Source: Bilabrum cf. latius (Eukaryota). Taken from it: a stretch of 64,000 bases of DNA. Below are positions 16,015 through 60,821 of this stretch, piece after piece. The DNA is taken from assembly GCA_965178125.1 (NCBI GenBank), contig OZ237746.1:1178001-1242000 (forward strand), in the 5' to 3' direction. The translations under genes were made by a program, and so were the position numbers. Positions within the stretch are counted from its first letter, which is position 1. Every line of letters begins with the position of its first letter. A model generated the notes under the pieces. That model saw nothing but the letters and a program-made list of their open reading frames with translations, did no database searches and was not told the DNA's origin.

Positions 16015-16150
16015 AGTGTAACGTCTAGATTAGGCCAAAGATAGGCCAAAACCGGTCGAGCATCCGATTCAAGGTAACGTGACATCACGTTTACACATTT
16101 ATGAACGTTCGCTGAGGCCACCTCACTTCGATCAAAATTACTTGTCTAGA

Positions 16151-33390: not shown

Positions 33391-33517
33391 TGACGGCAGG
33401 TGTGCGCTGCATTGCGCTGCACCTTGACCGGCGCTGATTTGTTGTTGTTGTCCTGTATGCGTGCGCAGAGGCGGCATAGTACTGTATCCACAGGCTGTTG
33501 GTCTGGGAGCAATCTCG

Positions 33518-35578: not shown

Positions 35579-35826
35579 TACAATGACAGCACAGCGGATG
35601 GTTCGACCATTGGATCTAGACAATGCAACGGAAAATGTCGCCCTAGCTGAGGGACTTTTCCCGGTTCCGGCTGGCTTTTGGCACGCAACATTGACGAGTT
35701 TGGCCCGGCGGGCCCGATTAGACTAGGCCGCCCGAGCATGATGGTAGCGGTAAATCCTCAAGATCCTTCACTAAAAATTGTTTTGATCTACATACGCATG
35801 TCTTACTACCACTTCAAGTGGGATTT

Positions 35827-38800
35827 TTACTGCTGCAGCTGCTCCTTGAGGATAAGGTCCTCGAGCGCCACACCGACCTGCTTGTCACCAGTCTCTCCAC
35901 CTGCGCCACCTGCGCCACCTGCGCCACCTGCGCCGCCCCTACCCCCAGCCCTGCCCATGCTCCTACTGCCATCGGCCCCGCTCATATCAGCTACACTACC
36001 AATCCCCGCCCTCGCCGCCACGGAAGCAACCACGATGGCCCTGGCAGAGTCCGTCCCCAGCCGATACACGAACAGCACCAGCACCTTGCCCAGCTGCACC
36101 AGCGGCTCCTGCAGCACGATGTCCACCACGAATGCAACCAGGCTCGCGACCACCCAGGCCCTCGCCTGCTCGGGGGTGAACAGGATCCCGTACAGGCAGC
36201 ACAGGTAGAACATGAAGCCCACCAGCACCAGCATCACCCCGTACACCAGCCCGATCATGAGGCCTCGGTCCCACCACGCCTCCTCCCAGTCCTGCACCTG
36301 CTGCTGCCTCCTCCTCCGGATCACCGCCCGTCGCCTCTTGAGCAGACGGGCAATCACCTGCGCAGACGTTTTGAACTTGCTGTCCTGTCCGTTGAGCGAC
36401 TGGGCCACCTCGTCACGGATGCGCACCTGCTCCGACCCGCTGCGTGCCAGGTTGCCCCGGTACCACTCGAAGACGAAGTACCCTGCAAGCACCACCAGCG
36501 CGGGCAGCACCTGCAGCCCCAGCACGGCAGCTGCGGCCTCGAGGGCGAAGGGCAGCTGCATCACCCCAAAGATAATGCCCCCAGTCGTCTGCATCACTAT
36601 TGCCGGTACCAGGGCGTACAGCGCGTTCTGTACCCACCCCCGCCTGGACAGGATAAATGCCACTGTGCCCAGCACCATCATGGCCAGACCAATCCCAGCC
36701 AGCAGAGCGATTGACCACCCAGATCCCTCCTGCTCCGCCCACACCTCTGCACTCAGCAGGTACAGCCCCAGCAGCATTCCCACGAATCCAGCCCACACGT
36801 ACACCAGCGACACGATCCCGATGGCGTTCAGCCACGGGCGCAACCAGGCCTCGGGGAGCGGCGCACGAGCGCTTCCTTGCGACCGTCCGTCCTGCATGGG
36901 GGTCGCGTCCACCGCCCCTGCCAGTCTGAGGCTCCGGAGCACCCTGCGACACGTGTGCTCGAACTCGCCCTCCAGCACGGCCCAGTTCTCCCTGGCGTCG
37001 TCTACGCCTGCTCCAGCCGCGGATGGGTCCGAGACCGGGTCCTGGGCCTGCAGGGCATCGTTGCCACCGGATGCAGCAGCCCCCGAATCTGTAGCGCCGT
37101 CCACAGAGGCCTTGGAGTGCGACTGGGCATGCTGCATGGACTCGCGCCTGGACTGAATCATCGGCGCCTGTCCGTACCCGGGCCCTCCTGCCTCACTGTG
37201 CACACGGTGCGCAAGGGCCGCCGCCAGCACGGCTGCCGCTTTCACGCCCGAGTCTTCCATGGCCCCTTCCTGCTTCTGACCACCCTCACGCGGGATGGCC
37301 GCCAGCACGGTCCGCCCCAGCCGCTCGATTGACTCGCCCATGCGCACTTCTGGATTGTCCAGCGGCCTGCCGCTCGATGCCAGCCCTGGCTTGGCCACCA
37401 CCTGCAGTAGCGCCAGCCGCACCTCCTGCAGTGACATAGCCCCGGCAGGCGGCCCAAAGCCCGCCATCCCCCTCCTCCCTCGCCGGTACACGAACCAATC
37501 CACAGCGGCATCCAGGTCCTCCAGGGAGGACACCACCGCCCGAGTCACCGCAGGAGCCGCGGCCTTGGCCCGCTGAGCCAGCACCTCCTCGCCGTCTGGC
37601 CCAGACTTCGGGTCGTCGTCACCCCCGACTGCCCCAGGAGCAAGCGCCATGCCACCGCCATTCAGGTGCCCAACACCCGCAAGCACGGCCTCAAGGGGTA
37701 CAATAGACTCCACCACCTCATGCGATCCACCGGTGGACGATGACCCCCCTTCCGTACTCGAATCGGACGCGGCCTCCTGGCCTATCTCCCCATCAAGGTT
37801 GGCGTCAGGGGCAGCCACAGGCCCGGGCTCCGCTCCATCTGACCGCCAGACATGCATCCTTGCTGTAGCAGATCCATCACCATTGTCATTCTGATTCTGC
37901 TGCAGACCTGCGGTAGACACGGGGCGGCCCGCAGCAGAGGACATGCCCTCAAGCGCCACCCCGATACCATTCCCAGCCTCCGCAATGTGTGGGTCCGGGG
38001 CGTCGGCTGGCGGGCCTTCCAAAGTGTACTTTTCTTCGTCTCGAGTTATGTAAGAAGGAGTCCGGGCCAGCGCACCGCATTCCCCTGACACCTGCAGTGC
38101 ATCCAGCGCCTCCTGCTTCCTCCTCGCCATATCTTTGGCCCGTTGCTGTCTTACTGCATACGTAACATCCAGGCTCTCGGCCCGAAAGGTGTTGATAAAC
38201 GCGAACAGACGGGGGGACAGACGCTCCACCGGAATCATAGAGGCTGCAGAGATCGCGGCCGACACGAAGCGGGCGGATACGCGCTCCGCCTCGCTGCCAA
38301 AGAAGACGGCGTTGATGGCCATCGAGGTCAGGCACGTGGCCACCAGGATCAGAAGCCGCTGCGGCCGGGTCACCACCAGGAGGTCCTCCTGGGGCGTAAA
38401 GAAGATGCTGCCCCACATGTGGTCTCTCCGCAGCGCATCAAGCCACTACTGTGTCAGATAGGCCACTACTAGCCAGAGCGTGCCTCGCTGTCGAAGGTCC
38501 GTCCACTCCTGCCTCGCATCCTCCTTGTCCTGTCGAATCGCCTCTAGTTGCGCTCTAAGGCCTTCCTCCTCCCCCTTCACCGCCGCCTCGATCTTGTCCA
38601 GGTCCACATAGGCGGGATACACGGCGTACAGCTCCTCTTCCAGCGCACCTGCTGTCTCTGCCACCCTCGTCTCGGTGGCTTCATCCACTGCCTTACCACT
38701 CATTTCCTGCAGCGGTCCACTGCCTGAAACTAGCTCACGGGGAGGACTGGGTGTGCTGGGTAACGGACTCTGACGACCACCGCCAGCACCGGCCGAGTGC

Positions 38801-41800
38801 AGCAGCTCCTGCTCTGCAGGTGTTGCCGCCTCCGAGCCCCCCTTCCTGCTCTCGCCCTCCATGGGCCTAATCGATACAGCCCCAGCACTCATGGCCAACT
38901 CCACGGCACTTGACGGAAAGCCTGCATCCCCAGCACTCGATCCACCCGTTGGCCCCGCTGCATACGCAAGACGTCTTGTAGACCTGCCCGATCCACCTGC
39001 AGCACGGCCTGCGGATTGCCCGCTTTGGGTGGCAGCGGCCTGTTTCCTTCTCTTCTGCTCCTGCACGATCTTCCAGCGGTACCTCTGCAGCACCTTAAGG
39101 TACACCTCCAGCTGGTCCTCGATGTGCAGCTGCTCCATACCCACCTGTCGTTGGATGTGCCCAAACCGAAGCATGTGCGCCTATCGCAGCTTCCGCAGCT
39201 CTGGCCTGCGATAACCCTCAAACACGGCAGACACCATCCACGAGATCCCAAATGCAAGCAGAAGCACGCCCAGCACAACCACCGGGAAGAGGTTCTCGGG
39301 CTGCAAGTAGTTCCGCAGCAGCCCGGCGTCCCCAACCGGATCCACCCGATTCACCGTGGGCAAGTCCCTTCGCACCACGGCCGCGAAATCGGACAGATGG
39401 GTAGACGCGCACACGGCCACTCGCTCTCCCGTCTGCACGTCTCGGTTCACCCTGACAAGCACCAGGCCAGCAGCCGACTCACCGCTATAGCTGCTGCCAT
39501 CCAGCCCCTGGCACACGAAATCCTCCGGCGTGGCACTTGCCTGCATTGGCACACGCACCAGGATGGGGCACTGCAGCCCTGACACCTCCGTCTCCATCGA
39601 CACACCCGCATCTGCCAGACTCACCGTGACAAACCCTGCCGGCCTCTCTTCTCTCTCCGAGGATGCAACCAGCAGGTCCTGGGGAGCTTGTGGGGACACC
39701 TGCCACTGCACCATCCGCAGGTCAATCGGGCCATCACCCTCTGCCAACAGCTGGCCAGCAGCCCCCCGCGCGTCCACACCACCGAGCCCCCGGCCATCTA
39801 CCACTGCCAGCTAGCCACCTACGTTTCCGCCCGCAGCAGTCCGGCGCACCGTCACTTCGGCGGTCCCAGGCAGCGACAACACCAGCGGGCCTTCTCCGGG
39901 TACAACGTCCAGCGACGCCGATGCAGCCACCCGCTGCATCGTGCCGTCCGTGGTGGCCCTGTATTCCGCCAGCTCATCCATCAAAACCTATGCAACGGCA
40001 ACGCTGCCACTTTGCGCTCTCCTCGTCCTCTTCCCACCGACTTGCCCACCCTCTGATTCCAGCGCCTGCTGCATGAGCCCCAGGATTTCCCGCCCGAGGG
40101 ACTGCAGTGAGTTCAACGCAGATGACGCAGCGAGTGATGTCTCCTGCTGCGAGCCAAACACCGACAACACACCGTCCAGCCCGTCGTTCACCACAGCCGC
40201 AGTGGCATTTTCTCCGCTGGCATTTTCGATCACCTTGCCCAGCAGCGACTGCAGCAAGCCCTGCAGCTGTCGCCGCGCAACCGGAGGCAGCTCACCCGGA
40301 TCCCCGAACAGGCCCGAAATCACGCTCAGCGCCTGCTCCGCCTCGTCCGGTGTGGCCGATTCCAGCTGCTCAAGCGACGACTGCAGCACCTCAACCGCCG
40401 AGCGACGAACAGCCCACACGCTCTGCAGCAGGTCCTTGCTCACGTCGCATGCCCGCCCATTCCATCCATCCTAGCACATGCACACAGCTGCGCACCCGAT
40501 GCTGTTGCCACCTGCCCTCACCACACATGCAGCATCGCTGGGAACGCGGGCGCACGCCCCGTGCCCACTGCACTCCACCGCAGGCACGCGCCCCCCCGCG
40601 GCAAGCACCCCATCCGAAGACCCAGGGCACGCTGCAAGGCCACCATCAGACGGGTTGCCGTCGATGGAAGCCGGTGGCCCGACCAGGCACTGGCCACGGA
40701 AGCACGAAGCCACGTCGCCGCCGCCTGCAGGAGCCACGCATGTCGTGGCATTGCAGCTGGATGCGCCCGTATCGGATCGCACCACCGCCCCTACCACGTC
40801 TGAGATAGTCTGCAGCGTTGCTAGCACCTCATCCACAGACTGGTACTGTGTCGCGTTGCCTAGGGCACCCACGCTGTCTGTGAGATCATCAAGGCGACCT
40901 TCAGCCACGGCTGTGGCGTTCTCCCTGCCCGCATCATCCGACACTTCCTGTCCTAGCACATGCACCAGCACAGGTCTTCCGTCCGTTCCGTACACGGACT
41001 CGACAGTGGCTCCCAGCTGGTCCCTCACCTGCACGCTCAGCACCACCGCCTGAGCCACCCCTGGCGTACTGGCCAGCGCATCCCGGCCCTCCTCCCCGGG
41101 ACCCACGCGCGCCCCTTCCAACACGGGGGACTGTGAGAATCCCCGACTCAGAGGCACAAACCGAGACCCAGACGAGCGGTCCAAGCGGGATACCAGCTCG
41201 GCATCCGCGATCGACCCGGCTCCAGCAGCTTCCGACGTGGCCAGGGCAAGCTGGTAGTACCCGAAGCGGTAAGCTAGCGGCAGGTGGGATGCCTCGTCCG
41301 TCCACCCAACAGCACGCAACTCTAGGCCTTCATCGACTTGATCCAGGAGTCGCACACTGACAACACCACCAGCTCCCGATGCACCGGGCGTGGAGGCCTC
41401 GAGGTGCCCAGAGGAAGGCGGGGCGTTGGTCTGGATTGCCACCGAGGCGGCCACGCTCCATCCAGCACTGGCACTGGAAACCACCACCTGCACCCGGTAC
41501 TGCGTCCCGTCCTCCAGCAGCGATGCCAGGATCACCGCTTGTGCCAGGGTGGGCGTCCCGCTGAAGATGGAGCCTCCAAGCGACTGGTCGCCCGATGCGC
41601 CCTGAAGCACGCTGTACGTCACCGTGGCATCTGTCGGCAGACCGTCACTGCCAGGAACACCGTCGATCACATCTCCCGTACCTGCATCTGTTAGTGTGGA
41701 ACGTACGATGAGCCGTCTCTCCGTGTTGATGAGGGCCCCACCTTCCTCCGTGGATGCACCTGCAATGAGCGAGGAACGGTCCACTTCCAGCTACACCAGA

Positions 41801-44800
41801 GGGGGCAGCTCCACCGCCTCATCTTGGACCAACGGGGACACGCCCACAGTGACGAACGCCGTCTGCGACCTGCGTCCTAGAGGGAACAGCAATCCATCCG
41901 TGGATTCCGGGTTCCTCGTCACGCTCACCGACAGGACCACCACCGACCCGGCGGGCAACGAACCCGCGGGCAGTTGCAGCTCCGGCCCACGCTGCTGCGT
42001 GACCAGCTGCGAATCTCCCCGCAGCGCTATCGGGGTTGTGACTAAAGGCAACAAGGCGGACGATCCAGCACCCGTCAGGTTCAAGCCGGGACAAGGCATT
42101 CCCTCGTCAAACGCAGCTGCCGCAGAGGTTACCTCCTGCAGCTCCTGCCGCACGATCGAGGCGTCCTGCAGCCCTTGGCGCGCCACCCTGCACTGCCACT
42201 GCATCTCCAGCTTCCGTCCAGTCACGTCCAGATCCGCGGATCCCCGGGCATCGAGCGTAAGCTCTTGCTCTGCGGCCAGCTACCTCCTAGCCCCTCCCGC
42301 GATGGCAGCACGCACACCTTCCGGCCGCACTACAAGTCGCACATCCGCTGAAGAAGACACGCTAGTGGTCTAGCCCGAGCCTAGCGACAGCCGCTACCGC
42401 ACGATAGCACGCAGCGTGTACGTCCGGCCCGCCCTCAGCGCCCCCGCCGGGAGCTGGATCGCACGCCCCCGCTGTCTCCTAAATCCGTTTAGCTCCTGCT
42501 CCGACAGCAGCCGACCAGGCAGCGAACCATCCGACACCCCATCCGTGGGCACTGCGGCTGTCATGATCCACCGCACGGGCTCCTGCTCCACGGACGCATC
42601 CACGCACGGAGACGCCTGCACCCGGGTCTGCAGCGTGAGGGGCCGCAGCGCCGACCCCTGCACCAGCTCTCCGCCCACTATGGAGATGCGAGGCACGTTC
42701 TCGGCTGATCTGCGGATGGTCACGGTTGAGCTGCCCGTGGACTCTGACAGGAAATTGGCCACGGTCACCCGCAAGGTCACATTCGACGCCTGGGAGGTGG
42801 CTGTTCGGGGGAGCGTGACTCTGGATAAGCGGCCGGCAGGTCCGCCCAGATATGTCTGCACCTGCTGCACGTCAGCTGCCTGCACACCGGCTCCGTCCAT
42901 GCCTACCAAATGCCACTGGTACGATAACGTCCTACCTAGCGTGCCGTAGGATGCCCCTGCATTGGCAGTGATGCCGTCGCATGGCCCGATGGACTGCGGC
43001 GCCTGCACCACTGCCACTGGAGCCAGCACAGCGGCCCTTGGAGGCTCAATCTGCACGCAACTCGCGCCCATAGTTCGCAGGGAGGAAGGCACAGATCGTA
43101 ATACGCCCGCTCTCAGCCGCAGCTATGACAGCGCCTGCCCCGCTGAGGTGCCAGCAGCGCCGAATTCCGGGCACGACAGCACGCCGTCCCACGGCCGCAG
43201 CGGCACCACGGCTGCTCCCGGTCCTAGGTACACGTCCAGCTGCCTAGAGGACCTGAAGGCACACCATGCTGTCTGCCCCTACACCCCCTGAGCCCGCGCC
43301 GCCAGTACCCATACCACGTTGGAGAACAGCAAGTCGCAGGGTCCCGCCTGCTGCCCCCCCGTCCCAATACTCACATCCACGTCGGAGGCGAAGGTCACCA
43401 CCAGCCGGGCCCCGGAGGAATCGAACACGGCTGACTTCACCACGGGGGCGGGTCTGCGGTCCTGCAGGACCACCTGTCCAGATGCAGTGGCATACTGCGC
43501 CCTTTGGGATAGGGGGTCCTGCAGCTACACGTCGGCCGCCCTGGTGGCCCCACCGCTCAGGGTCACACTCACACCGTGCCGGAAGCTGCCTCCTTGCACG
43601 GCTGCATCCGACGGTACCACCAGCAGTCGGCGGGGAGATTGCCAAGCACACATGGCGGCTCCTGTAGCAGCAGTGTTACCCGCCCCACTTGCCTAGAATG
43701 CCAGGAACAGCGTGGCTGGAGAGATGGGGGCTGGAGTGGAGCTGCATGGGAAGCCGCTGGATCGCACCGTCTGCACCAGGGTGGCCGAGGCTGTCTCTCC
43801 CGTCAGCCTGGCGGGCAATGCTGCCAGGACAGACCATCCTCCCATGTTTGTATCTCGATCAAACTGCACCAGCACAGCGTCTGCGACTTCAAGTATGGAG
43901 GCGGACTGCAGCACGGGGGCATCCACAAATACCGTCTCGATCCGCCGTACGGCCGGCTCGATCACCTCCTGCACATCGACCCGAGCGATGCCACCTGCCT
44001 GGGCTAGTGGGTTGCCCGTTGCACCTGAACCAATGGCCTGCTGTGTGGAGCTGTCGTACTCCGGGTCTGTGCTCGTGAAATCGAGGTTAACTGCCCCACC
44101 CAGGATCAGAGTCTCTGTCAGTTCGCTGGGCAATGTCCCCGAGGGCTGGCTCCTGAGGGTGAAGGTCACCCTCCCCTGCCACTCTGACGGCTGAATCACT
44201 CTGCTGGAGGGACCCACCACAGCCAGATACCCGGAACTGTCCCCATCGAGGAGACAATCTACCCGCACCGAGGCCGTGGGTCGACTGCCCAGAGACACAG
44301 TCACCTGGGCATCCCTGTAGGTGTACCCAGATCCACCTGCTGCGGTCTGTGTCGCTGCAATCACCACTTCCTGCGGCTGCACAGTCACCCCAACGCCATC
44401 CACCTCCCGCAGCGGCAGCACCAGAGTCGCGTTCCTCCTCCCCACAGAACCATCCGCGATGGCCAGGTAGCCCCCATCGGTGGTGCCGCCGGCATCCAAC
44501 TCAACGGACACATGCACAGGATCACGCACTGGACTGGCCACCCCATCTGCAGACGTGGTGATCATCACAGCCTGAGGGACACTCCAGTCGCTGCTCGTGA
44601 ACTCAAGCACCGAAGCAGTCACGTTGCTCTCGGCATCCGAAGGCACACCCCCCTGGTCCTGCACCCCAACTACCAAGGTCACGGTACCGGAGGGCTGGGA
44701 CGCTAGAGCCACAGCAACGAAAGCAGACTCCCCTTCTGCGATCATAGCCAAGCCCCCATTGTCGCCTGCATCACCGGCCAGCAGATACACCGATGTATCA

Positions 44801-47800
44801 CTGCTGTTGCCATCTCGGGAATCCACCCGCTGCTGCAGCCCCAGAGGCAACCCACCGGCCCCGGCCAAAGGTGCATCTCCAGGTGCCCCAAAGATGATGA
44901 ATCCGGCTTCGTCATTGTCCTCTTGTTGCACTGTGACCGTCGCCGCTGTCAGCTCATGCACACCGTCTGGTGTCTCCAGCCGCAGCTTAAACCCGAGCGC
45001 CGGGCAGTTCCCGGCCCCAGCAGATCGATCGTCTGGGAGTCGCACCTGCAGCAGCACCGGGACGTCAAAGCCCTCCCTGGTCACGGCCGTGAGCACCTCT
45101 TCCTCTCGCACCATGGCACGCAGGTCCTTGCCGCGGTGGGTCAGCGGGAACTGCGTCAGGACGGCGCATGCGGCGTCATTGCCCGGGGTGCCTGCATCCA
45201 TCGACTCGCCCAGGACGATCCTGGCCCCTTGCCCCCCCATGGGCTGCGACAACGACACGCTCAGTCCCAGCGTGCTTCCCTCCTCCGCCAGCACAAGCAG
45301 GTCGGATGCCTCCGCATACCTGCCTCCATCAGCCCCTGAGACAGCTACTGGATCCACGCCGAACTCGAACGCCCGCACCCCAACTGGGAGAGTTGCGCCC
45401 GGCGCAACCGCTCCAGCCGCCTCGATGAGTACGGCGGCGATGGGAGGCGGGCTCGCACTAGCAGCAGCTGCACTTGACGATGGTGTCGGGCTCGCACTAG
45501 CAGCAGCTGCACTTGACGATGGTGGCGGGCTCGCATTAGCGGCAGCTGCACTTGACGATGGTGGCGGGCTCGCACTAGCGGCAGCTGCACTTGACGATGG
45601 TGTCGGGCTCGCACTGGCGGATGTGGCTGCACCTGGACTCGCGCTAGGCACCGATCCCCCTATGAAAATCACGTGCACTGCTCCTCGATCATCTCCTCCC
45701 GTGTCATCCCCACGTGCACCTGCCACGATGACCGTCCTACCGAGGCCTTGCAATGCAGTCGGGGCAGCCACGCCAGAGCCTGCGTCCCAGGTAGCGCTCA
45801 GCATCGAGTCCAGCCTCGTGATCTTGGTGAAGTCCCTGACCGGGTCTGTCTCGGTGCCCGGGTTGAGATAGAGGATGTACAGGGCCCCCGAATTGGCGCC
45901 GCCCGTATCATCGGAGCCTCCGCCAACCAACAAGTCCTCCTGTCCATCACCATCAATGTCCCCGCACTTGCCCACGGCTCCAAAGCCTGACCCTGTTTCA
46001 AGGGTACCACTCGGCAGCCCTCCCTCGCCGTCACTGATCTCCTCCACAGATCCAGGGATAGCACTGCCGTCAGATGAAACCCGGAACAGCAACACGCGGT
46101 CTGGGCTCGCCCGCGCTGCAACATCCACTGGATTCCCGGCCTAGCGGGGCTCCAGGGGCACAAGCAGTGCGCTTAGCTGCATTGAACCTAAATCAACGGA
46201 CGCAAAAGCGCTCCCCGGACCCGGCGTGATCCTAGTGTGGGCCTTGACCCTGTCGTTTGCCCGCATGAAGAGCACAAATAGGGCACCGTTGTTCATGCCT
46301 CCCGTGTCATCAAACGGTGCACCCACCATGATGTCGTTCAGTCCATCGCCGTCAACATCACCAAGACTCGCCAACGACTGCCCAAAGTTATTGTTTGAAG
46401 CAATTGCGCCAGAAGGTATACCGCCGTTGAATCTATCGATCCTCTGAGTGTGCACCACCGTGGCATTGGGAAGCACGCGCATCACGAAGACCATGTCCCC
46501 GCCCTCTGCTCCTCCCACCAGTCGAGGCAGGTGGCCCTAGTCGCCGTCGGGCTGGTCAAACCGCCCAGGCACGCCGAAGAAGTTGCTGGTACGAACCGCG
46601 AGGTTAGCCCCGCCCTCTGTGATCGAGATTTTCTGGAAGTCTCTCACGGTCCCATTCCGGTGCAGGAAGAATACGTACATGGCTCCAGCATTGGTGGCAC
46701 CATCGTCAGTCGTGATGGCAGATACACCCAGCTCGTCGATCCCGTCGCCGTCCAGGTCCCCAAGGCTGGCAATGTGGGTGCCTAGCTGGTCTGAGTCGGA
46801 TAGCTGGTCGCTGGGGAATCCTCCCTCCCCGTCAGCGATCTTGACCGTAGACAGCACCGTGCCGACGGCTGCGGGTGACGGCGACGCTGACGGGGTGAGA
46901 CTGATGCTGGGCGTGGGAGTGGGGCTTGTGGAAGGGCTTGGACTGGGCACTGACCCACCGATGAAGATCACGTGGATAGACCCACGACCAGTCCCGCCCG
47001 TGTCGTCCTTCCATGCACCTCCGATCAATGTTGTCCTGCCCTAGCTGCCCAATCCGCCCACAGCAGCGGCTCTTCGCATCTCAGACCCAACCTGCCATGT
47101 CCCATTCAGCGCCGGGTCCAGCCTCGTGAGCTTGGTGAAGTCCCTGACCGGGTTCGTCGACCCACCCGGGTTAAGGTAAAGGATGTATAGGGCACCCGAG
47201 AGAGTCCCGCCGGTGTCGTCTTTTGGCGCACCCACCAGCAGGTCCTCGTATCCGTCACCATCTAAATCACCCAAGGTACTGACAGTGCCAAACTGAGAGC
47301 CTGCTTCGATGGCACCATTGGGCATCCCACCAATGCCACTTCCAATGACCTCTAATGATCCAGGTATGGCCGTGCCATTTGCAGCAATCCGCAGTAGACC
47401 GAGCGGACGGTCATCAAGCCCGATAGATATTGCTACATCAACCGGGTTTCCGGCTTGGCGGGGGGATAGCATGGTTATGTCCGTGCCGATGTTCAGACTG
47501 GCCACGTCAATGCTGGCAAACACACTCCCTGCCCCACTCGTTATCACGGTGTGGCCCCTGACCGTGTCGTTGCCCCGCATGAAGAGCACGTACAGGGCCC
47601 CATCATTTGTTCCTCCGAGGTCAGAGAACCTCGCCCCTGCGATGAGGTCGTTCAAGCCGTCGCCGTCAATATCAGTCGATAGGCCGTACGCCACGGCCCC
47701 AAAGCGGCCCTGAATGGACCCGCTGGGCATCCCGCCCTCTCCATCCGCGATCTTGGTTGTGTGCACCACCGTGGCATTTGGCAGGATGCGCATGATGTAG

Positions 47801-49638
47801 ATGGCATTTTGGCCCCTGGAGCCGCCTAGCAGCCTAGGGAGGTGGCCCTGGTCGCCATTGGGCTGATCGAGCCGTCCGGGAATGCCAAAATTGGAATCGT
47901 TGATCGCTTCTATTGCAGCGCCACCCCGCGTAGCAGAGATCTTCTGGTAGTCTCTCACAGTTCCGTTCTAGTGCAGGAAGAGCACGTACATTGCACCGTT
48001 GTCAACCGCACCATCGTCGTCATTTAGTGCCTGCACAGCCACCTCGTCGATCCCGTCATCATCGATATCTCCAATGTTGACTACCGAAGCTCCGAAAAAG
48101 TCCAGATTGCCCAATTTACTGGCTGGGAATCCTCCCTCCCCGTCAGCGATCTTGACCGTAGACAGCACCGTGCCGACGGCTGCGGGTGACGGCGACGCTG
48201 ACGGGGTGATACTGATGCTGGGCGTGGGAGTGGGGCTTGTGGAAGGGCTTGGACTGGGGCTGGAAGTGGGGCTTGGACTGGGCACCGATCCTCCTATGAA
48301 GATCACGTGCACTGCTCCTCGATCATCACTTCCCGTGTTATCCTTCTCCGCCCCTGCCACGATGGTCACCCGCCCGTCACTTCCAAGACCTTGTATGCCA
48401 GCAACAGATACCAGCCTTGAGCTCGCCAACCAGGTAGCGCTAAGGACAGGATCCAGCCTCGTGATCTTGGTGAAGTCCCTGACCGGGTCTGTCTCGGTGC
48501 CCGGGTTGAGATAGAGGATATACACAGCGCCTGAGCTCCCACCACCGCTATCATCAAGCGAAGCAGCCGCCACTAGATCCTCCTGTCCATCACCATCAAT
48601 GTCACCGCACTTGCCTACGCGACCAAAGTTGCTATCGTTCTCGATAGACCCGCCTGGGAGCCCGCCATTCCCATTGCTAATCAGCTTGATCGAGCCGGCA
48701 ATCACGGTTCCGTTTCCTGCAAGCCGAAACAAGATAATCCCGTTGATGATGTTGCTTCTAGTAGCGATATCAACCGGGTTACCGGGCAGCCTCGGCTCCA
48801 GAGCCACGATCTATGCCCCTATCCTCAGGATGTCCGCATCCACGCTCGCCAGACCCGCTCCATGCGCCGACGAGATCTTGGTAAAATCCCTGACTGTGTC
48901 ATTGCCCAGCATGAAAAGCACGTACATGGCACCCTTGTTGATACCTGCAGACTCGTCGTCACCTGCTCCCACCATGACGTCGTTCAGTCCGTCCCCATCC
49001 ACGTCCCCCAGGTCGCCCGTCACCCCCACACCGAACCAGCTGCTTGCCTGTATGGATCCGTTGGGCATCCCTCCCTCCCCATCGGTGATCTTTGTCGTGC
49101 GCACCACCGTGGCATTCGGCAGCACACGCATTACGTACAGGGCATCTTTATCCTAAGCACCGCCCAGCAGCCTAGGAAGGTGGCCATCATCCCCGTTGGG
49201 CTAGTCCAATCGCCCAGGGCTTCCAAACCTGGAACCTGCCTCGATGTCTAAGTCGGCGCCACCCCGCGTAGCAGAGATCTTGTGGTAGTCCCTCACAGTT
49301 CCGTTCTAGTGCAGGAAGAGCACGTACATGGCACCGGCGTTCGAGCCACCGTCATCATCAGTCCTAGCGGCTGCGGCCACCTCGTCGATCCCATCGCCGT
49401 CCAGGTCACCCACGTTGGCCACGATGGATCCGAAGAAGTCGTCAGTGCCCAGTTCATTGCTGGGAATGCCGTTCAATCCACTGCCGATCTTGACCGTGGA
49501 CAGCACCGTGCCGGGAGCGGCAGGGGAGGGTGAAGGCGAGGGGGTGGGCGAAGGCGAGGGGGTGGGACTGGGCGAGACCACTGCCCCAGTGCTCAGCTGT
49601 GCCCCCAGCAGCTGCAGTACCAGCAGATAGTGCAGCAT
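35827..49638 (-). CDS. Giant single-exon polycystin-1/PKDREJ-like adhesion receptor, 4603 aa: signal peptide, 3 FG-GAP propeller modules, REJ-like region, EGF, GPS, multi-TM
   Basis: Fifteen track ORFs lie in one frame. I read every gap between them and found 21 TAG, no TAA or TGA. Ends TAA 35829-35827. Motifs LTLDARGSADLD, TNAPPSSG and LPLAYRFGY (REJ), CMC*DGWNGRAC (EGF), VCASTHLSDFA (GPS), RPQRLLIL and LYGILF...W (PKD1-like TM region). Confidence 0.88.
45448..45615 (-). repeat. 42-bp coding tandem repeat x4 encoding an ASP(T/P)PSSSAAAA(S/N) linker
   Basis: CGGGCTCGCA(C/T)TAGC(A/G)GCAGCTGCACTTGACGATGGTG(T/G) repeated on the + strand. Confidence 0.85.
45650..49510 (-). repeat. Three tandem ~1.3-kb FG-GAP propeller modules within the giant gene
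   Basis: Each unit starts GTVLSTVKI and ends HVIFIGGSVPS. An identical DNA block at ~46815-46897 and ~48126-48208 gives a period of ~1311 bp. Confidence 0.85.
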
Positions 49639-50759
49639 CGAGACTGCAATCCAGATCGAACGACGTGCAGTGATGCTAGAGGCTGAAAGGTCGGTGCGCT
49701 GTGGCCTGTGGCCTCAGTCGTGTGACTCGTCGCTTGTTGGCCTGGCTTGTTGGCCTGAGGAGGCCAGCTTGCAGCAGTGCTCTGGCTCGGAAGAAGTCTG
49801 TCGGTCAATGACTTGGCGTGATGAGACCAGCGGCTTGCTAAGTACTATTCCGCTGCCGATTGAAAAGGGTTGGGAATGCAGGTAAAGACTGCGGGTGGGG
49901 GCCAGTGGGGGAGAGGGGGGGAGGTGGAGGAGGGCAGGGCTATGGAGAGCAAGTGCCGCATTCCATCCAGCAGCAACTCGCGTCTCGTTGGTCATCATAG
50001 GATAGATAGCCGACAAAAATGAAGTTTAATGCAAAGTTAACCCAGCGCGAGCCCCTGGAACGCTCGAGAGATGCGAAAGAAGCTCAACTGGGACTTCCAC
50101 GACACCGTGTCCCTGCCGTGAGCGCGGTAAATCAACCTGTTTCGCTCCTGAACGCTACTCATGCGATCCATCAACCTAACATGCAACATAGAGGGCGGCC
50201 TGTCGCTCAAAACGCTGATTAAACCGGGGCAAGTGATGGCCTCAGGATCAGCAACCGCTGCTGTTGCCTCAGATAGCAATTCCATGCCTATCTGAGCCCA
50301 GAAATGCCCGATGCACGCATCATACAACAACACAGCCCATATCATCAAAACTTGATTGCGGGAATTCGCAAATTTCCATTACAGGTGGAGAGACAAGGTA
50401 AGTGGTAGCTGCCTCGATCGGGTTAGCCAGACACCGAGCCGCATGACAAGGTCCAGGACATGCCCGCAGCGTGAAATGGAGATTTAAAACAACCAATCAA
50501 CCCCAGAGGTTCGCTCTCAAAGCTCAAATCGGATCAAAATCACGCGGAACTGCAGCCAGCAGACACTCACTCGAGTACCGAATCCAAGGCAGCAGACGCC
50601 ACACCAGCGCCAGTGCTACCAGCGTTGCAATAGGATAGGATGCGTGCAAAGCAACTGAGTTAAATACCCGCAGCTTCTAGCGGGACCTGCTTGGGACTAC
50701 GAGCCAAAGGAAGTGGGCGAGCGGTCGAGACTGGTCGCACCACTGGCAGTGGTCGCAAG

Positions 50760-52285: not shown

Positions 52286-55200
52286 ATGTCAGGTGAGTGA
52301 CTATAAGGCATGTTGTGCTACATTCGTGGCAGTCTATTTGCTTTTGCATGCGGTTCGCTGCTCGATTTCGGACTCGCGCGGTTGGTTGAGACCATGCACA
52401 AGGCCAAGTTGAAAACATAACTTTGACTATGAAACGACATAAAATATTGGACCATTTTGCACTTCGTTGCGCAGAAGATTCTGGTGAATCCAGGGTAAGG
52501 CGCACCCAGCTTGTCCGTTCGATCGATTTGCTGATTGCACGTTTTCTATTTCTGCATGTTGCACATGTTTATGACCATCGCTTCGCAGGCTACAAGGCAC
52601 AAACGACTTTGCGATGAGAATGGATTTACTTTGACCACGCAAGATCTCTGCAAAGTGGTTCAAGACAAGAACGTGAGCCAACAAACGCGGATACTGCTGA
52701 AACTGATCCTGCTTCGGGCATCCCAGTCCGACTTCTGTTCCATTCACTTAGAAACCTGAAATTTGTTCACAGTTAAAAGTGTATCGCGATGAATTTGGTG
52801 GACTCGATGGTGTCTTGTCGGCTTTGAAAACGAACAAGGAGAGCGGGCTCACGGATGCTCAAGTCGAGGTCAACCGCAAAGTCTACGGGAAGAATGTGCT
52901 TCCGAAGCAGCAGGTCAAGACGTTCCTTGATCATCTCTTGGAAGCTCTTGCAGACTTGACACTAATCATCCTGGTGATTGCCGCGACCATCACCATCATC
53001 TTTGGTATCGCGGTGACTGGCCAACAGGCAGACTGGATTCAGGGCATCTCCATCATGCTGGCGGTCATCATCGTGTCCGGCGTGACCTCCGTGGTGAACT
53101 ACTGGCAGGACGGCGAGTTCCAGTCTCTGCGCGAGTCCAGCGAGGACCACGACGTGACGGTCCTCCGCAACGGAGAGCCCGTGCAGATCTCCATCTTCGA
53201 CCTCGTGGTTGGCGACATCTGCCGCATCCAGTACGGCGACAAAGCCCCCGGCGACGGGATCCTTGTCTCGGAGGAGGGCGTACACACAGATGAGTCCGCG
53301 CTGAACGGGGAGTCGGAGCAGATGCGCATCACGCAGGCCAAGCCGGTCATCCTGGGGGGCGCCAACGTGGACAAGGGCGAGGCGTACTATTGCGTGTGCA
53401 CCGTAGGAGTGGACACGACCTTCGGATCCATCGTTGCATCGCTCAACAGCGGGAAGGAGGAGCAGAAGAAGCGCCGCGAGGAGCTTGAGGCCGCCGCCCA
53501 GCAGCGCAAGTCGGGCCAGGTGCAGGTGGAGAAGGCATCGGACGAGTCGCAGAGCATCCCCGACAGCGAAGTGGCCTCCACGGCGCACATGACGGGCAAT
53601 GCTGCCGGCATCAAGGAGGGAAAGGACGACGACGAGGAGGGTGAAACCAACCCCGTGCTCAGCTTTGTGTACAACTACGTCTGCTGCTGCTTTTGCGGCG
53701 ATGACGATGACGACGATGACTTCGACGGCACCCCGCTCCAGCTCAAGCTCAACGTGCTGGCGGAGCAGATCGGGTACGTGGGGCTGGCCTTTGGCGCGGC
53801 GACATTTGTGGTGCTCTTCATCCGCCTCTTTGCAGAGGGCAAGGCCGACTCGGAGTGGTATGTGGAGGTCGTGGGCTACCTGGTCATCGGCATCACCATC
53901 GTGGTGGTTGCTGTGCCCGAGGGCCTGCCCCTGGCCGTGACCATCTCGCTGGCCTGGTCCATGCAGGCCATGACCCGGGACAAGAGCCTGGTGCGCGAGC
54001 TGGCGGCATGCGAGACGATGGGCAGCGCCACCGCCATCTGCTCCGACAAGACCGGCACTCTCACAGTAAACCGCATGACCGTGGTGGCGGGCTACTTCTT
54101 CGGCCGCCTCTTCGAGCAGAACAAGACCGGTATCCCTCGCGTGGACCAGCTGGGATCCGCGGAGGCGAGCAACCTGGACGCGCTGGCCCGCGGCATCGGG
54201 CTCAACTGCTCCGACGCAAGCGCCGTGACCGTAGACGAGAACGGGCAGGCCCAGTTCCAGGGCAACCGGACCGAGTGCGCGCTGCTCAACCTGCTGCAGT
54301 CCGATTACAAGGTGGACTTGGCCGCCCTCCGCGAGCGCACCAAGCACGACCAGTTCTACAGGCAGAGCTTCGACTCGGAGCTCAAGCGCATGTCTACTCT
54401 GTACGCCGTCCGCGCGGGACATGAATCCGGAAAGGTGCTGCAGTCCGTGGGCAGTGGCGCGGCTGCCCCCGCGGGGCAGGGCGAGATCGTCGGCTACCGG
54501 CTCGTGTGCAAGGGCGCGTCTGAGATCCTGCTGGAGCTGTGCACCAAGTACCGCACCATGTCGGGCGAGGAGGCCCCCATCACTGACGAGATCAGGGCCC
54601 AGATCGCGGGGCACATCAAGACGCTGGCCAAGTCCGGCCTCCGGACCCTCGTCGTGGCGGAGCGCTCGCTGTCCCTGGAGCAGGGCCTGTGCCCCGCCGG
54701 TGCCAGCCCCGCCGAGCGCGACGAAGCGTACGACGGGCGCATGAAGGACCTGGAGAAGGAGATGACGCTGCTCATGGTGGCCGGCATCGAGGACCCCATC
54801 CGACCGGAGGTGCCCGCCGCCATGGCGGCCTGCAAGCTGGCCGGCATCCGCGTGCGCATGGTCACCGGCGACAACATCGAGACGGCCCGCAAGATCGCCC
54901 GCGAGTGCAAGATCCTCACGGACGAGTTCAACGTGGCGGTCACGGGCGAGCAGTACCGCAGCATGACCACCGAGGAGCGCAAGGAGGCACTGCCCAACCT
55001 GGCCGTCATGGCACGCTCGCTCCCTGGAGACAAGCTGCTCATGGTACAGGACCTGCGCCAGATGAACGAGGTGGTGGCCGTGACCGGCGACGGCACCAAC
55101 GACGCCCCCGCGCTCAAGGAGGCCCACGTGGGCCTGTCCATGGGCATCACCGGCACCGAGGTGGCCAAGGAGGCCTCCAAGATTATCATCCTGGACGACA

Positions 55201-56120
55201 ACTTCGCCTCCATCGTGGCCACGGTCAAGTGGGGCCGGTCCGTGTTCAAGAACATCTCGTCCTTCCTGGCCTTCCAGCTGGCCATCAACGTGTCGGCGCT
55301 GACCATCACCTTTGTGATTGCCTGCACCAACGACGGCAGCACGCAGAGCTTCCCCATCACCCCCACGCAGCTGATCTACGTGAACCTGATCATGGACTCG
55401 CTGGGCGCGCTGATGCTGGCCACGTCCCCGCCGGAGGAGCGCATGATGCTGCAGGAGCCCAACAGCCACGAGAAGCCCCTGCTGACCAAGATCCTGATGA
55501 AGATGGTGCTGGCGCACGGCGTCTGGGAGACGATCGTGGTGCTTGTGCTGGCCCTGACCGAGTTCGGCAAGGACGTGCTGCTGGTGCCTGACTCCTTCGA
55601 GGTGGGGTCCCGGGAGCACAACACGGCCGTGTTCAACGCATTCATCTTCATGGTGATCTGGAACAAGCTGCACGCCGCCAAGATCCACGACGAGCTTGAC
55701 AACATCTTCGCGGAGCTCCTCACCAACACGCTGGCGCTGATCATCCTTGTGGGCATCCTTGTCCTGCAGATCATCATCATCGAGGTCGGCGGCGAGGTGT
55801 TCCAGACCGTGCCGCAAGCGTGGGACCAGTGGTTCGTGGCCGTGGCGATCGGCTTCACTTCGGTGCCCCTTGGATACCTGGTCAAGTTCATCCCGTACTA
55901 CGACGAGTACGACGTGCTGGCCAAGACCTACGGGTTCTGGGGCGAACCTGGCGCCCTCGAGGACGGGGAAAAGAAGCTTGCGGAAGCTAGGATCACGCGG
56001 ACTTCCACGCAGCTGCTGCGCGATGCGCCCTCTGCTCCATCGTCAGGCGCTGCTGGCGCTCACGTCGAGCTTGTGGATCAGCAAAGGAGCGATGGCGTCG
56101 GAGCCGCAGCATCGGCCTGA
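52286..56120 (+). CDS. P-type IIB (PMCA-like) Ca2+-ATPase, copy 1, ~1152 aa; join(52286..52292,52475..52494,52589..52672,52773..56120)
   Basis: Motifs VAVPEGLPLAVT, CSDKTGT, KGASE, MVTGDN, VAVTGDGTNDAPAL and QLIYVNLIMDSL. The 5' micro-exons are inferred from GT...AG sites and share intron phases (1,0,0) with copy 2. Ends TGA. Confidence 0.93.
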
Positions 56121-56540: not shown

Positions 56541-59500
56541 TCACGCAGTGCCACCGGTCGCACCCGATCCGACGCCATCGGTCTGCTTGGGCGTCTCTGG
56601 CAGCTCGATGTGCCCGTTGGACTGGCCAGCCGCAGCGGCGGACCCGCCGGACTCGTCCGCGAACTGCGCGATATCGCCGGCCTGCCCGCGCTGCACTCGG
56701 TTCTTCTCGAGCTCGGCGTCGGCCTTCTCGGCGGCACCCGGGGGCGCCCAGAACCCGTAGGTCTTGGCCAGCACGTCGTACTCGTCGTAGTACGGGATGA
56801 ACTTGACCAGGTATCCAAGGGGCACCGACGTGAAGCCGATCGCCACGGCCACGAGCCACTGGTCCCACTTTTGCGGCACGGTCTGGAACACGTCCTCTCC
56901 GCCGACCTCGATGATGATGATCTGCAGGACCAGGATGCCCACAAGGATGATCAGCGCCAGCATGTTGTTGAGGAGCTCCGTGAAGATGTTGTCAAGCTCG
57001 TCGTGGATCTTGGCGGCGTGCAGCTTGTTCCAGATCACCATGAAGATGAACGCGTTGAACACGGCCGTGTTGTGCTCCCGGGAACCCACTGCGGCGGAGT
57101 CGGGCACCAGCAGCACGTCCTTGCCGAACTCGGTCAGGGCCAGCACAAGCACCACGATCGTCTCCCAGACGCCGTGCGCCAGCACCATCTTCATCAGGAT
57201 CTTGGTCAGCAGGGGCTTCTCGTGACTGTTGGGCTCCTGCAGCATCATGCGCTCCTCCGGCGGGGACGTGGCCAGCATCAGCGCGCCCAGCGAGTCCATG
57301 ATCAGGTTCACGTAGATCAGCTGCGTGGGGGTGATGGGGAAGCTCTGCGTGCTGCCGTCGTTGGTGCATGCAATCACAAAGGTGATGGTCAGCGCCGACA
57401 CGTTGATGGCCAGCTGGAAGGCCAGGAAGGACGAGATGTTCTTGAACACGGACCGGCCCCACTTGACCGTGGCCACGATGGAGGCGAAGTTGTCGTCCAG
57501 GATGATGATCTTGGAGGCCTCCTTGGCCACCTCGGTGCCGGTGATGCCCATGGACAGGCCCACGTGGGCCTCCTTGAGCGCGGGGGCATCGTTGGTGCCG
57601 TCGCCGGTCACGGCCACCACCTCGTTCATCCGGTTCTTGAGGTCACGCACCATGAGCAGCTTGTCGGTGGGCAGCGAGCGGGCCATGACTGCGAGCTTGG
57701 GCAGGGCCTCGACCCTCTCCTCGTCCGACATGGTCCGGTACTGCGTGCCAGTGACCGCCACGTTGAACTCGTCCGTCATGATGCCGCAGCTGCGGGCGAT
57801 CTGCATGGCCGTCTCGATGTTGTCGCCGGTGACCATGCGCACGCGGATGCCAGCCTGCTTGCACACGCGCACGGCGGCGGGCACCTCGGCGCGCAGGGGG
57901 TCCTGAATGCCTGCGATGCACAGCAGGGTCAGGTTCTTCTCCAGGTCCGCGATGCCCTGGTGGTAGGCATCGTCTCTCGCCTCCTGGCTCACGTCGCTCT
58001 TGCAGGGGGCCTCCGCGGGGCTCACGCGGCGCTCGGCCACCACAAGGGTCCGGAGCCCGCGGCGGGCCAGCTTGAGGATGTGTTCCTTGAGCGTGGATCG
58101 CATCTCGTCAGTGATGGGGGCCTCCTCGCCGTTCTGCTGGCGGTACTTGGTGCACAGCTCCAGCAGAATCTCAGACGCGCCCTTGCACACGAGCCGGTAG
58201 CCGGCCACCTCGTCCTCGGGGTAGGGGATGTGGCCGGTCGAAGGCAGCCGATGCGCCACCTTGGGGTGCGGGATGGTGCTCTTGGTGTGCCCGATGTCCG
58301 ACGGGGTGTCATCCCCGTCTTCGCCGCCCGCGGCTCCCGCTGCGCCGCCGCCCGCAGCCTCCTGCTCCCCAGCTGCTGCCTCGTCACCGTCCTCTGCTCC
58401 GTCCGCGTCCGCGCCCTCTGTGTCCTTGGCAAGTTCCTCGAGGAAGGTGGGCCCGTCCTCGTCGGTCTTGGTGACCACGTACACGGTGGTCATGCGCTTG
58501 CGGTCCGAGCTGAAGTTCTCCCTGTAGAAGAGGCGCTGCTCCGCGGACTTGCGCTCGCCCACGAAGTTCACGTCCAGGTCCTTCTTGAGGAGATGCAGCA
58601 GCGCGCACTCGGTCCGGTTGCCGATGAACTGCGGGGCCTTGCCGTCGGGGTAGTTGACGGTGCCCGTGGCGTTCCATGCGATGCCTCTCACGAGCGCGGC
58701 CAGGTTGCCCGTGTGCCCGTCGCCGATCTCGGCCTCCTTGGGGGCCCCGTTCAGGTGCAGGCGACCGAAGAAGTAGCCCGCCACGACGGTCATCTGGTTG
58801 AGAGTCAGGGTGCCGGTCTTGTCGGAGCAGATGGCCGTGGCGCTGCCCATCGTCTCGCATGCCGCCAGCTCGCGCACCAGGCTCATGTCCCGGGTCATGG
58901 CCTGCATGGACCAGGCCAGCGAGATAGTCACGGCCAGGGGCAGGCCCTCGGGCACAGCAACCACCACGATGGTGATGCCGATGACCAGGTAGCCCACGAC
59001 CTCCACATACCACTCCGAGTCGTCCTTGCCCTCTGCAAAGAGGCGGATGAAGAGCACGATGAAGGTGGCAGTTCCGAACGCGATGCCCACATACCCGATC
59101 TGGGTGGCCAGCACGTCGAGCTTCTCCTGCAGCGGGGTGTCCTCCTGCTCTGCGCCCTGCAGGGAGGCCACGATCTGGCCGTACGTGGACTCGACGCCCA
59201 CGGCGCACACGAGCATCCACCCTGACCCGTCGTTGATCTGCGCCCCGCCGATCAGGTAGGGGCTCTTGTCCGTGATCTTCGCGGGGCGGGACTCTCCGTT
59301 GATCTGCGCCTCGGTGACGCTGATGCCGTGCCCCCGGATGAGGATACCGTCGCACGGGATGACGTCACCGCCGGACACCTTGAGCACGTCGCCCACCACC
59401 ACGTCGAAGATGGACAGCTGCTGCTCCTTGTCGTCGCGCATGACCGTCACCTCCCTGTTCTCCTTGGAGGCGCTCAGAGACTGGAACTCGCCGTCCTGCC

Positions 59501-60821
59501 AGTAGTTTACCACCGAGGTCACGCCGGACACGATGATGACCGCCAGCATGATGGAGATGCCCTGGATCCAGTCGCTCGAGTTGTTCGTCACCGCGAGCCC
59601 GAAGATGATGGTGATGGTGGCCGCCACGGCCAGGATCATCAGGGTCAGGTCGTTGAGCGCCTCGATCAGGTGCTGCAGGAAGGACTTGATCTCCTGTTCG
59701 GGCATGCGGTTCTCGCCGTACACCAGGCGCTGGCGGATCACGTCCGCCTCGCTCAGGCCGCGCTGCAGGTCGGCCTTGAGCTTCGACGCCACTCCGTCAA
59801 GGTATCCTAGCTATGCGTACGTCTCTGCCTGCGATTAAAAAGAAAAACGCGAGAGTAGCGTGTGCGGGCCATCGATCCGGTGTGCAGGTGCGGGGATGCC
59901 GCTTCGGCTATTCCGTGCTCGCTTTGCCCAACTATGACAACCGTTGCGAGATACAGTCTATGCCCACATCCTTATTGGCACGTCAGCCACTGGCGTGAAA
60001 CAGTGGGGCGCGAATGCATCGGGAAGGGTTGGCCCGAGTGTGGTAGACAAGTACTACGCGCTTGGACGCCCTTGTGCGCAATCAACCGTCATCAGTGGAA
60101 CGTAGTGCCCCCCAAAAGGCTTAAGTACGACATGGAACAACATTCAGTATCCCTCGCCGCAGATTGACCAAGTAGGGGGTATCCGGGAACCTGCTGGCCT
60201 ACCCACAACAGCAAACAACGAGGTCACTCTATCAATGCGGCCAAAACAGGAGCGCCTGAACTGCCCAGGCCGGCCGAGACGTATAAAATTATATCCATAC
60301 GGCATATGCCTCGGTCATTATTCCGTTTGCTTCTCTCACCGACTTGTCTGCTACCATTTGCTGGAGCTCCCTCCTGTCGACTTTGAAGCCATATTGCTGC
60401 CGCTGCCTGCGGTGCTGCTCGTCATCCTCGAGCTGCGCAACATGTTGATATCAGTACGAACAGTGTAAAAATTGCGAAGAATGTCACGTAAATTCGCACT
60501 TGGCTCAATCCGCGGTGCAACGGATCTCGCAGCATGGGGTGCTAAACCGAGCCGGGGCCTGCATGCTGCACCTCACCTATTCCTTGGTTCTTGTGTGGTC
60601 CACCACCTTTTTCTCTACGTTCACCTCTACGCCAGAAGGAGTTGAAGGGGTGAGCTCTGCGAAAGAGCTGTGCATCGCACTATTTGTCTTCGCGGTGGTC
60701 CGGCGCGCGTTTCGGCGCAGCCTTCACAAGCACTGTGGCCAGTGAACGACAATCAACACCCGTCCTATCAGTAGCAATACCACAATACTTAGCACTCACC
60801 AGATTGACCGTCGTCTGCCAT
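56541..60821 (-). CDS. P-type IIB (PMCA-like) Ca2+-ATPase, copy 2, ~1160 aa; join(60821..60800,60656..60577,60432..60340,59828..56541)
   Basis: Same motifs as copy 1. N-terminus YGFKVDRRELQQMVADKS|AETYA*LGYLDGV is homologous to copy 1 NGFTLTTQDLCKVVQDKN|LKVYRDEFGGLDGV. TAGs at 60577 and 59811. Ends TGA. Confidence 0.93.

Follow-up and report, generated by a model that had tools for sequence, protein, structure and literature searches.

The FG-GAP/REJ gene and the TAG codons of the window

The DNA analysed here is a stretch of 64 kb, called the window (positions 1-64,000; all coordinates below are window positions). It is nuclear DNA of a GC-rich (approximately 63%), intron-poor microbial eukaryote, as shown by its spliceosomal-type introns and by its genes for Rrp15, PMCA-type pumps and a class I histone deacetylase, and its G+C content ranges from 59 to 68% along the stretch. 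On the minus strand lies a gene for a predicted surface receptor with FG-GAP and REJ domains, the frame of which contains 21 TAG codons. The meaning of TAG in this genome, very probably glutamine, is the subject of this study. The gene, its three repeated modules and the three TAG codons that face a glutamine codon in another module are listed below.

35827-49638, minus strand: FG-GAP/REJ gene, predicted surface receptor; 4603 codons, ATG start, TAA end, 21 in-frame TAG
48277-49521, minus strand: FG-GAP module 1, residues 40-454; TAG 49306, 49201, 49153 and 48811
46942-48183, minus strand: FG-GAP module 2, residues 486-899; TAG 47968 and 47041; CAG 47863, CAG 47848 and CAA 47455 opposite TAGs of modules 1 and 3
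45643-46872, minus strand: FG-GAP module 3, residues 923-1332; TAG 46537 and 46141; CAG 46552 opposite TAG 49201
49201-49203, minus strand: TAG in GRLD-x-PNG, profile position 107
46537-46539, minus strand: TAG in GD-x-GHLPRL, profile position 112; elsewhere in this column Q 5, D 6 and G 1
46141-46143, minus strand: TAG in PR-x-AGNPVD, profile position 245; a variable column with S 6, L 2 and one each of Q, V, M and E

The protein was found to match the Pfam families FG-GAP (E 3.9e-32) and REJ (E 2.2e-20, residues 2419-2597). Both the REJ domain and the membrane tail are encoded downstream of many TAG codons, a dozen in the case of REJ. By eye, a hydrophobic N-terminal leader, three modules of about 415 residues, Pro/Ser linkers, an EGF-like Cys pattern and a multi-pass tail can be recognised, together with the sequence HLSDF, which had no Pfam match and which we take to be a GPS-like motif. 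A word-indexed protein search at near length gave no match for residues 1900-4603. All coordinates that the preliminary description of this DNA gave for TAG and glutamine codons proved to be right, and the TAG codons of the modules all lie in the one minus-strand frame at 35827-49638.

In its own frame the gene holds 21 TAG, no TGA and a single TAA, the terminator, compared with 99 and 98 TGA, 10 and 13 TAA and 44 and 26 TAG in the other two frames of the same interval. Of the three stop codons, only TAG is thus tolerated within the frame. When 14 open reading frames (ORFs) of the window were summed, 91 TAG were counted in frame, as compared with 107 and 76 off-frame, and neither TGA (311 and 248 off-frame) nor TAA (32 and 30 off-frame) was ever internal. 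TGA terminates 11 of the genes and TAA two, and the long frames that stay open beyond TAG argue against frequent termination at this codon. TAG is almost certainly a sense codon in this genome.

Among the 17,243 codons of the 14 ORFs, TAG occurs 91 times (about 0.5%), CAA 99 times and CAG 596 times. The share of TAG in TAG+CAR drops with rising G+C content at third codon positions (GC3; Spearman rho -0.79, p=0.0009, 14 ORFs), and none is present in the EGF gene or in either of the two Ca-ATPase genes (GC3 0.88-0.93). The lack of TAG in the Ca-ATPases at such high GC3 indicates that it is avoided under strong codon bias. The base after TAG is distributed as it is after CAG (p=0.64) and after all codons (p=0.69), so no readthrough-type context is apparent. 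TAG is therefore used like any normal sense codon that is not preferred, with a frequency close to that of CAA.

Of six runs associated with the window, four were compared over 30001-50000. X5 and X6 belong to a study other than that of X1 and X2, and their contigs skip 30041-30164 and 30543-30659, with CT..AC ends that read GT..AG on the minus strand; both joints are absent from the DNA runs X1 and X2. The depth of X5 falls to 0.12 in the bin 33336-34002. On account of the spliced joints and the uneven depth, the X5 and X6 contigs behave as RNA. They match the middle exon of the spliced gene at 29612-30929 exactly, with its three TAG (30210, 30306 and 30441) all kept. In the listed X5 pieces, 36724-45477 and 45847-46715 are reproduced without any difference or gap, which covers 15 of the 21 TAG of the FG-GAP/REJ gene and leaves out the six module TAGs between 47041 and 49308. 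No splice joint takes out a TAG codon. Because TAG is unchanged in the contigs of the spliced runs, UAG-to-CAG editing and excision of TAG are unsupported.

These observations bear on the possibility that the TAGs go untranslated, being located in decayed pseudogenes, produced by assembly or sequencing errors, edited from UAG to CAG or removed in tiny introns. No kind of point mutation is commoner than that from CAG to TAG, and the support for translation is drawn from sequence, so such an account has something in its favour. It is nonetheless extremely improbable in view of one stop codon appearing alone in frame (no TGA against about 98 per off-frame in the FG-GAP/REJ gene), the same pattern in independent metagenome contigs and in runs of two studies, the 15 of 21 and 3 of 3 TAG retained in spliced-run contigs, where no joint removes one, and the gap-free columns in which TAG aligns.

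Two regions of the FG-GAP/REJ gene differ between assemblies. At its 3' end, in a Gly/Ala-rich repeat, alternative letters and small indels were present in all four runs at 35914-35921 and 36175-36282; these variants within 35900-36300 are probably repeat-length alleles or assembly noise. Contigs of X1, X2 and X5 join 38447 to 39058, omitting 610 bases (AC..TG ends, not a multiple of three), and the left edge of this joint coincides with TAG 38446-38448. The joint may stem from a second allele or from an assembly variant caused by repeats.

The amino acid opposite TAG

Between the three modules of the FG-GAP/REJ protein, identity is 60-61% and the divergence at four-fold sites is p=0.51-0.56, as compared with 0.73 at saturation, which shows the duplications to be old and the modules not to be recent copies. 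Eight module TAG fall in seven alignment columns, which read in the order module 1, 2, 3: TAG/TAG/CGG; TAG 49201/CAG 47863/CAG 46552; GAT/CAG 47848/TAG 46537; TAG/AGG/GAG; TAG/GAC/CTG; CTG/CAA 47455/TAG 46141; and GAC/TAG/gap. The TAG columns align without gaps within conserved blocks. Opposite TAG stand four Gln, three Asp, two Arg, two Leu and one Glu (n=12). Gln makes up 1.7% of the module residues and is present in 16 of the 416 columns, three of the seven TAG columns among them (hypergeometric p=0.0015); no residue besides Gln is enriched, Asp having the next lowest value (p=0.068). Gln stands opposite true Gln in 8 of 34 cases, opposite Glu in 1 of 56 and opposite TAG in 4 of 12.

The pairing of TAG with CAG or CAA in three columns, on which the preliminary description had built at 49201, 46537 and 46141, is the one behind the value of p=0.0015, and the codon alignment of the three modules that it had proposed gives Gln as the most frequent residue opposite TAG (4 of 12). 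The remaining TAG columns, which it had called variable (R, D), contain R, R and E, D and L, and D. The window by itself does not set Gln clearly apart from Glu or Ser, Gln and Glu being about level; it is insufficient for Gln because CAG and TAG are one transition apart and three columns are few. The assignment of TAG to Gln made in that description is supported, but it was decided by related DNA beyond the window.

Outside the modules, the MFSD1 chain in the PDB has Gln (GQ in a membrane helix) opposite TAG 27714-27716. A word-indexed search with the N-terminus of this MFS protein returned four distant matches (top Pfam family generic MFS) with A and T/K/K/A at two TAG columns, which are uninformative. 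Gln is the most enriched of the residues adjoining TAG (1.68-fold), and a neighbour-profile likelihood leaves H, R, K, E, M, Q and L unseparated.

A profile of the three modules was compared with 1.84 billion representatives, yielding 36,807 matches at E <= 0.001. Among the best 150 of these, all but three are repeat-level FG-GAP matches, which are uninformative on the codon because the TAG columns are variable there (position 72: A 29%, S 23%, T 14%); the four with organism names among the best 150 are bacterial. The three whole-module relatives are P0048, P0123 (approximately 91% identical to module 3) and P0140, and P0123 has Gln at the position of TAG 46537. A search of residues 1950-3300 for shorter proteins gave two fragments of a relative of about 89% identity, with one TAG-Lys pair. 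One of these fragments, P0158, breaks off immediately ahead of a further window TAG, as would be expected from gene calling with the standard code. The near relatives in protein databases are all short fragments (P0123 of 230, P0157 of 194 and P0158 of 124 residues), consistent with standard-code gene calling breaking the genes.

Metagenome contigs were scanned with six sequences, the three modules together with P0048, P0123 and P0140, and 46 loci were obtained. Six loci (L001-L005 and L007) share the Pro/Ser linker and the module build at a G+C content of 0.56-0.66, and three record prefixes occur among the clade contigs. Over 466-1373 codons each, these loci hold 2-10 in-frame TAG, no TAA and no TGA, compared with 5-48 TGA in the off-frames. 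The six represent five distinct contigs, as L004 repeats L003 and was left out of all counts. L003 and L004 each begin with the sequence found at the end of the other, which makes them look like two assemblies, overlapping or circularly permuted, of a single tandem array of modules. In 21 more distant loci (within L006-L027) the matched frames contain no TAG, TAA or TGA. With TAG in the near loci only, the code change appears to be common to a small clade and absent from distant standard-code homologues.

For the pooled analysis 15 modules were used, three from the window, eight from distinct contigs and four from three database proteins, with L004 and three short partial matches dropped. This pool holds 29 TAG in 20 columns, opposite which Gln is enriched 7.4-fold, Glu 3.2-fold and Ser 2.1-fold. 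A column was considered conserved when at least 70% of it was one residue, with at least eight residues present, which applied to 141 columns, two of them Gln-conserved. These two contain 17 Gln and 6 TAG (4.8 TAG expected if TAG is Gln) and thus six of the seven TAG found in conserved columns. The probability of six or more in the Gln columns upon random placement of the 29 TAG is 6e-9; counted by columns, with both Gln columns struck, p=0.0022. The seventh lies in Asp column 382, and no TAG was found in columns conserved for G (533 residues), L, A, V, P, F, R, I, T, S, N, Y, K, M or H. Distributed over columns conserved for the own residue, columns conserved for another residue and variable columns, TAG gives 6/1/22 and Gln 17/1/91, and TAG represents 21% of the Gln-type codons in the module set.

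Column 107 is the most telling of these. Across 13 modules it consists of five TAG and eight Gln only, with CAG in all five Gln for which there is DNA, and at least four independent TAG/Gln changes were located on a tree built with this column masked. Since no standard Ser or Glu codon occurs in it, TAG encoding Ser or Glu would mean that such a residue was repeatedly accepted solely via TAG.

A plain emission likelihood (Codetta-like) was dropped because its outcome depends on the weighting, and a calibrated opposite-residue model was used instead. In this model Gln comes first; per occurrence Glu is behind by 8.6 nats and Ser by 15.4, and per column Glu by 1.7 and Ser by 5.0. Of 2000 column bootstraps 1428 gave Gln, 497 Glu, 64 Ser and 11 Trp. 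Upon calibration, true-Gln sets were called Gln in 218 of 300 cases and true-Glu sets in 4 of 300. Leu is outside the best eight residues, the eighth of which lies 11 to 24 nats behind Gln.

Glu is the closest competitor in these figures, and UAG or UAR is known to encode Glu in some ciliates and in Blastocrithidia. As the runner-up it draws level with Gln when column 107 is removed, and it can further point to column 279 (Glu in 8 of 12), one TAG-GAA pair between tandem paralogues, one module column with GAG and the Glu of human Rrp15 at one TAG. A sense codon for Glu is nevertheless quite unlikely, as the two Gln-conserved columns hold six TAG and never GAG or GAA, Glu is 8.6 nats behind per occurrence, only 4 of 300 true-Glu sets were called Gln in calibration, and Gln stands opposite Glu in 1 of 56 cases in the window modules as against 4 of 12 for TAG. 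No column reaches 70% Glu in the module family, and the single column with 67% Glu holds one TAG.

The assignment of TAG to Ser, with TAA and TGA as stops, is very improbable. None of the TAGs falls in the four Ser-conserved columns (39 Ser; 2.6 expected; p=0.067, a comparison of modest power), and column 107 is devoid of standard Ser codons even though these are about 14 times commoner than TAG in the modules. The calibrated model places Ser 5.0 nats behind per column and 15.4 per occurrence, with 64 of 2000 bootstraps. What speaks for Ser is its frequency in TAG columns 237 (S 5), 245 (S 6), 328 (S 5) and 96 (S 4), its first rank in the plain emission likelihood when each column counts once, and an identical stop-codon pattern, described for the green alga Scotinosphaera (PMC8271138). 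The nearest Atlas clusters of the EGF protein are from Oomycota and not green algae, a lead only.

Several points weigh against TAG as Gln and are collected here. The decisive evidence comes from one protein family, and elsewhere one aligned Gln, that of MFSD1, was found; as CAG and TAG are one transition apart, mutation alone favours their pairing in close relatives. Per column the calibrated model has Gln ahead of Glu by only 1.7 nats, and the plain emission likelihood, which ranks Gln first by occurrence and Ser at or above Gln by column, does not separate Q, S and E. Column 382 has Asp in all eight other modules beside TAG; column 337 is Y/F/L (7/4/1) with TAG in contig L002; and column 279 is Glu in 8 of 12, CAG being the codon there in the sister of the TAG-bearing module. 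The reliable pairs between the tandem FG-GAP paralogues (17809-22083 and 22698-27083) are TAG-TAG, TAG-GAC, TAG-GAA and CAT-TAG, without a Gln. Lys was found in P0158 at window TAG codon 2038, in the MFSD1 PDB chain (WFKGKEL) opposite TAG codon 138 (27840-27842) and in a VKOR-type thioredoxin-like domain, and Asn and Glu in human RRP15. A scan for tRNAs and Rfam families detected none in the window and the six related loci, and the window holds no eRF1. Run X5 is labelled 'RNA? (probably DNA)' by the run analysis and none of the listed runs is recorded as RNA, the RNA nature of X5 and X6 being deduced as described above. Finally, ORF ends were set by TAA and TGA, so that a TAG terminator would escape notice. 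The outlying residues are one-step neighbours of TAG and tolerable replacements for a surface Gln, and they carry little weight because close relatives can show only one-step neighbours; even so, they make the evidence statistical and not uniform.

The same outliers would also suit a codon without a dedicated tRNA or with a mixed meaning, either read by near-cognate tRNAs under weak termination or used as sense or stop depending on position. Near-cognate tRNAs insert Gln, Tyr and Lys at UAG during readthrough in yeast, and Tyr (column 337) and Lys (P0158 codon 2038; the second MFS TAG), both one step from TAG, are among the residues observed. TAG is also avoided in the most codon-biased genes, and TAG terminators would go unnoticed with the ORF ends as defined. 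Such a state is unlikely, given that TAG is as frequent in frame as off-frame, accounts for 21% of the Gln-type codons in the modules and has no special 3' context. The load of 21 TAG in one gene needs efficient decoding.

Other genes of the window

Besides the FG-GAP/REJ gene, the window encodes a TPR protein, an IQ-motif protein, a teneurin-like EGF protein, Rrp15 and a class I histone deacetylase, in addition to the following.

13369-16100, minus strand: class I histone deacetylase gene; by eye at least three short upstream N-terminal exons (one with KRRVSYFY), across short introns
16079-16735, plus strand: small ORF with two thioredoxin-like halves; three in-frame TAG; weak PDB matches to TXNDC5 and a bacterial VKOR thioredoxin-like domain
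17809-22083 (16 TAG) and 22698-27083 (12 TAG), plus strand: two tandem paralogous FG-GAP membrane-protein genes
27429-29339, plus strand: MFSD1-like transporter gene; five in-frame TAG
29612-30929, minus strand: spliced gene, putative single-pass membrane protein; introns 30041-30164 and 30543-30659; TAG 30210, 30306 and 30441 in the middle exon
52779-56120, plus strand, and 56541-59792, minus strand: two convergent PMCA-type Ca-ATPase genes; GC3 0.88 and 0.93; no TAG

The histone deacetylase has a Gly/Ala/Ser-rich tail of about 400 residues, which carries the sole TAG of that gene. Its upstream exons were checked for a TAG at an invariant position and none was found. The small ORF at 16079-16735 had no Pfam match at E 0.001.

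The tandem FG-GAP paralogues have long Ser/Pro/Thr linkers and poorly conserved, TAG-rich C-terminal tails that are open over hundreds of codons all the same. A stretch of 185 bases round a shared TAG is 93.5% identical in DNA between the two, which suggests, from the sequence similarity, gene conversion or a recent partial duplication. For the exon of the spliced gene at 29612-30929 no Pfam or PDB match was obtained, hence its three TAG are without an alignment partner; an 'MRH-like' impression of this gene by eye was likewise unsupported.

The PMCA-type Ca-ATPase paralogues lie tail to tail and their C-terminal halves are near-identical at the protein level. Each gene has an open antisense frame of about 1000 codons without a Pfam match, illustrating how long spurious ORFs become in such GC-rich DNA. 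In the Atlas search, mixed taxa were obtained for the Ca-ATPase, and the nearest clusters of the EGF protein were labelled Oomycota, which is a lead only and no placement.

Proposed code and comparison with known codes

Most likely, though with somewhat less assurance than the amino acid itself, the complete code has TAG as Gln, no stops other than TAA and TGA, and a tRNA dedicated to TAG. UAG would have been lost as a dedicated stop and be read as Gln, leaving UAA and UGA to end genes. By analogy with known cases, UAG but not UAA would be read by a tRNA-Gln(CUA) that a single change in the anticodon derives from tRNA-Gln(CUG), and eRF1 would no longer recognise UAG efficiently, as has been proposed for the GTS-motif change in Iotanema. 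In the literature the CUA anticodon is described as reading UAG and not UAA at one change from tRNA-Gln(CUG), and a predicted tRNA-Gln(CUA) and a GTS-motif change in eRF1 are reported for Iotanema (PMC5304391, PMC9161772).

The closest likeness is to Iotanema spirale, where UAG is Gln and UAA and UGA are stops (the pattern of NCBI table 15). As there, UAG alone is reassigned here, Gln is deduced for it and UAA is kept as a stop (PMC5304391 and PMC9161772). Iotanema is an anaerobic fornicate known from its transcriptome, whereas the present case is a genomic stretch of 64 kb with about 63% GC and relatives in metagenomes. The codes in which UAR is Gln (NCBI table 6) likewise turn a stop into Gln, with TAG alternating with CAG and CAA at Gln positions (PMC8271138). 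Table 6 is used by many ciliates, hexamitid diplomonads and dasycladalean and other ulvophyte green algae. In those codes TAA is read as Gln too, whereas here TAA is never internal (0 against 32 and 30 off-frame), ends two genes and is absent from the relatives.

Scotinosphaera, with TAG as Ser (PMC8271138), has the same codon and the same two stops, but here TAG follows the Gln-conserved and not the Ser-conserved columns. The rhizarian exLh, where UAG is Leu and UAA a stop, is likewise a UAG-only reassignment; here, in contrast, the 11 Leu-conserved columns (122 Leu) are free of TAG, where 7.7 would be expected (p=0.00035). The 'code 15' of crAss-like and other phages has both the codon and the residue in common with the present case (PMC9523058). 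Those are phage genomes in bacteria, whereas the genes considered here are eukaryotic nuclear genes with introns.

Departures from the standard nuclear code are few. In a full-text literature search, no UAG-only nuclear code was found to be reported for a stramenopile or for a GC-rich non-ciliate eukaryote of this kind; subscription papers lay mostly and supplements wholly outside its scope, and as the runs date from 2025 a description may exist. Codes giving UAG and UAA different meanings were first described only in 2017 (PMC5304391). Tentatively, and with the odds somewhat against it, an unreported clade of GC-rich, intron-poor eukaryotes might have reassigned UAG alone to Gln independently of Iotanema, ciliates and green algae; the one Atlas lead hints that this clade may be related to stramenopiles.

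For annotation the consequence is that standard-code gene calling fragments most genes of this organism and its relatives, and that annotation and metagenome binning need table 15. A further lineage with UAG as Gln and with UAA and UGA as stops would be an independent test of eRF1 dropping one stop while keeping two, and of whether a single anticodon change in tRNA-Gln is sufficient. For the present lineage a genomic assembly and environmental relatives are available, as are public runs of DNA and others that behave as RNA. Should the code have arisen independently in it, the interest to specialists is real; were the independent clade to be true, UAG-only recoding would be a recurrent route and not a curiosity, with a genome-level system at hand for the changes in tRNA and eRF1.

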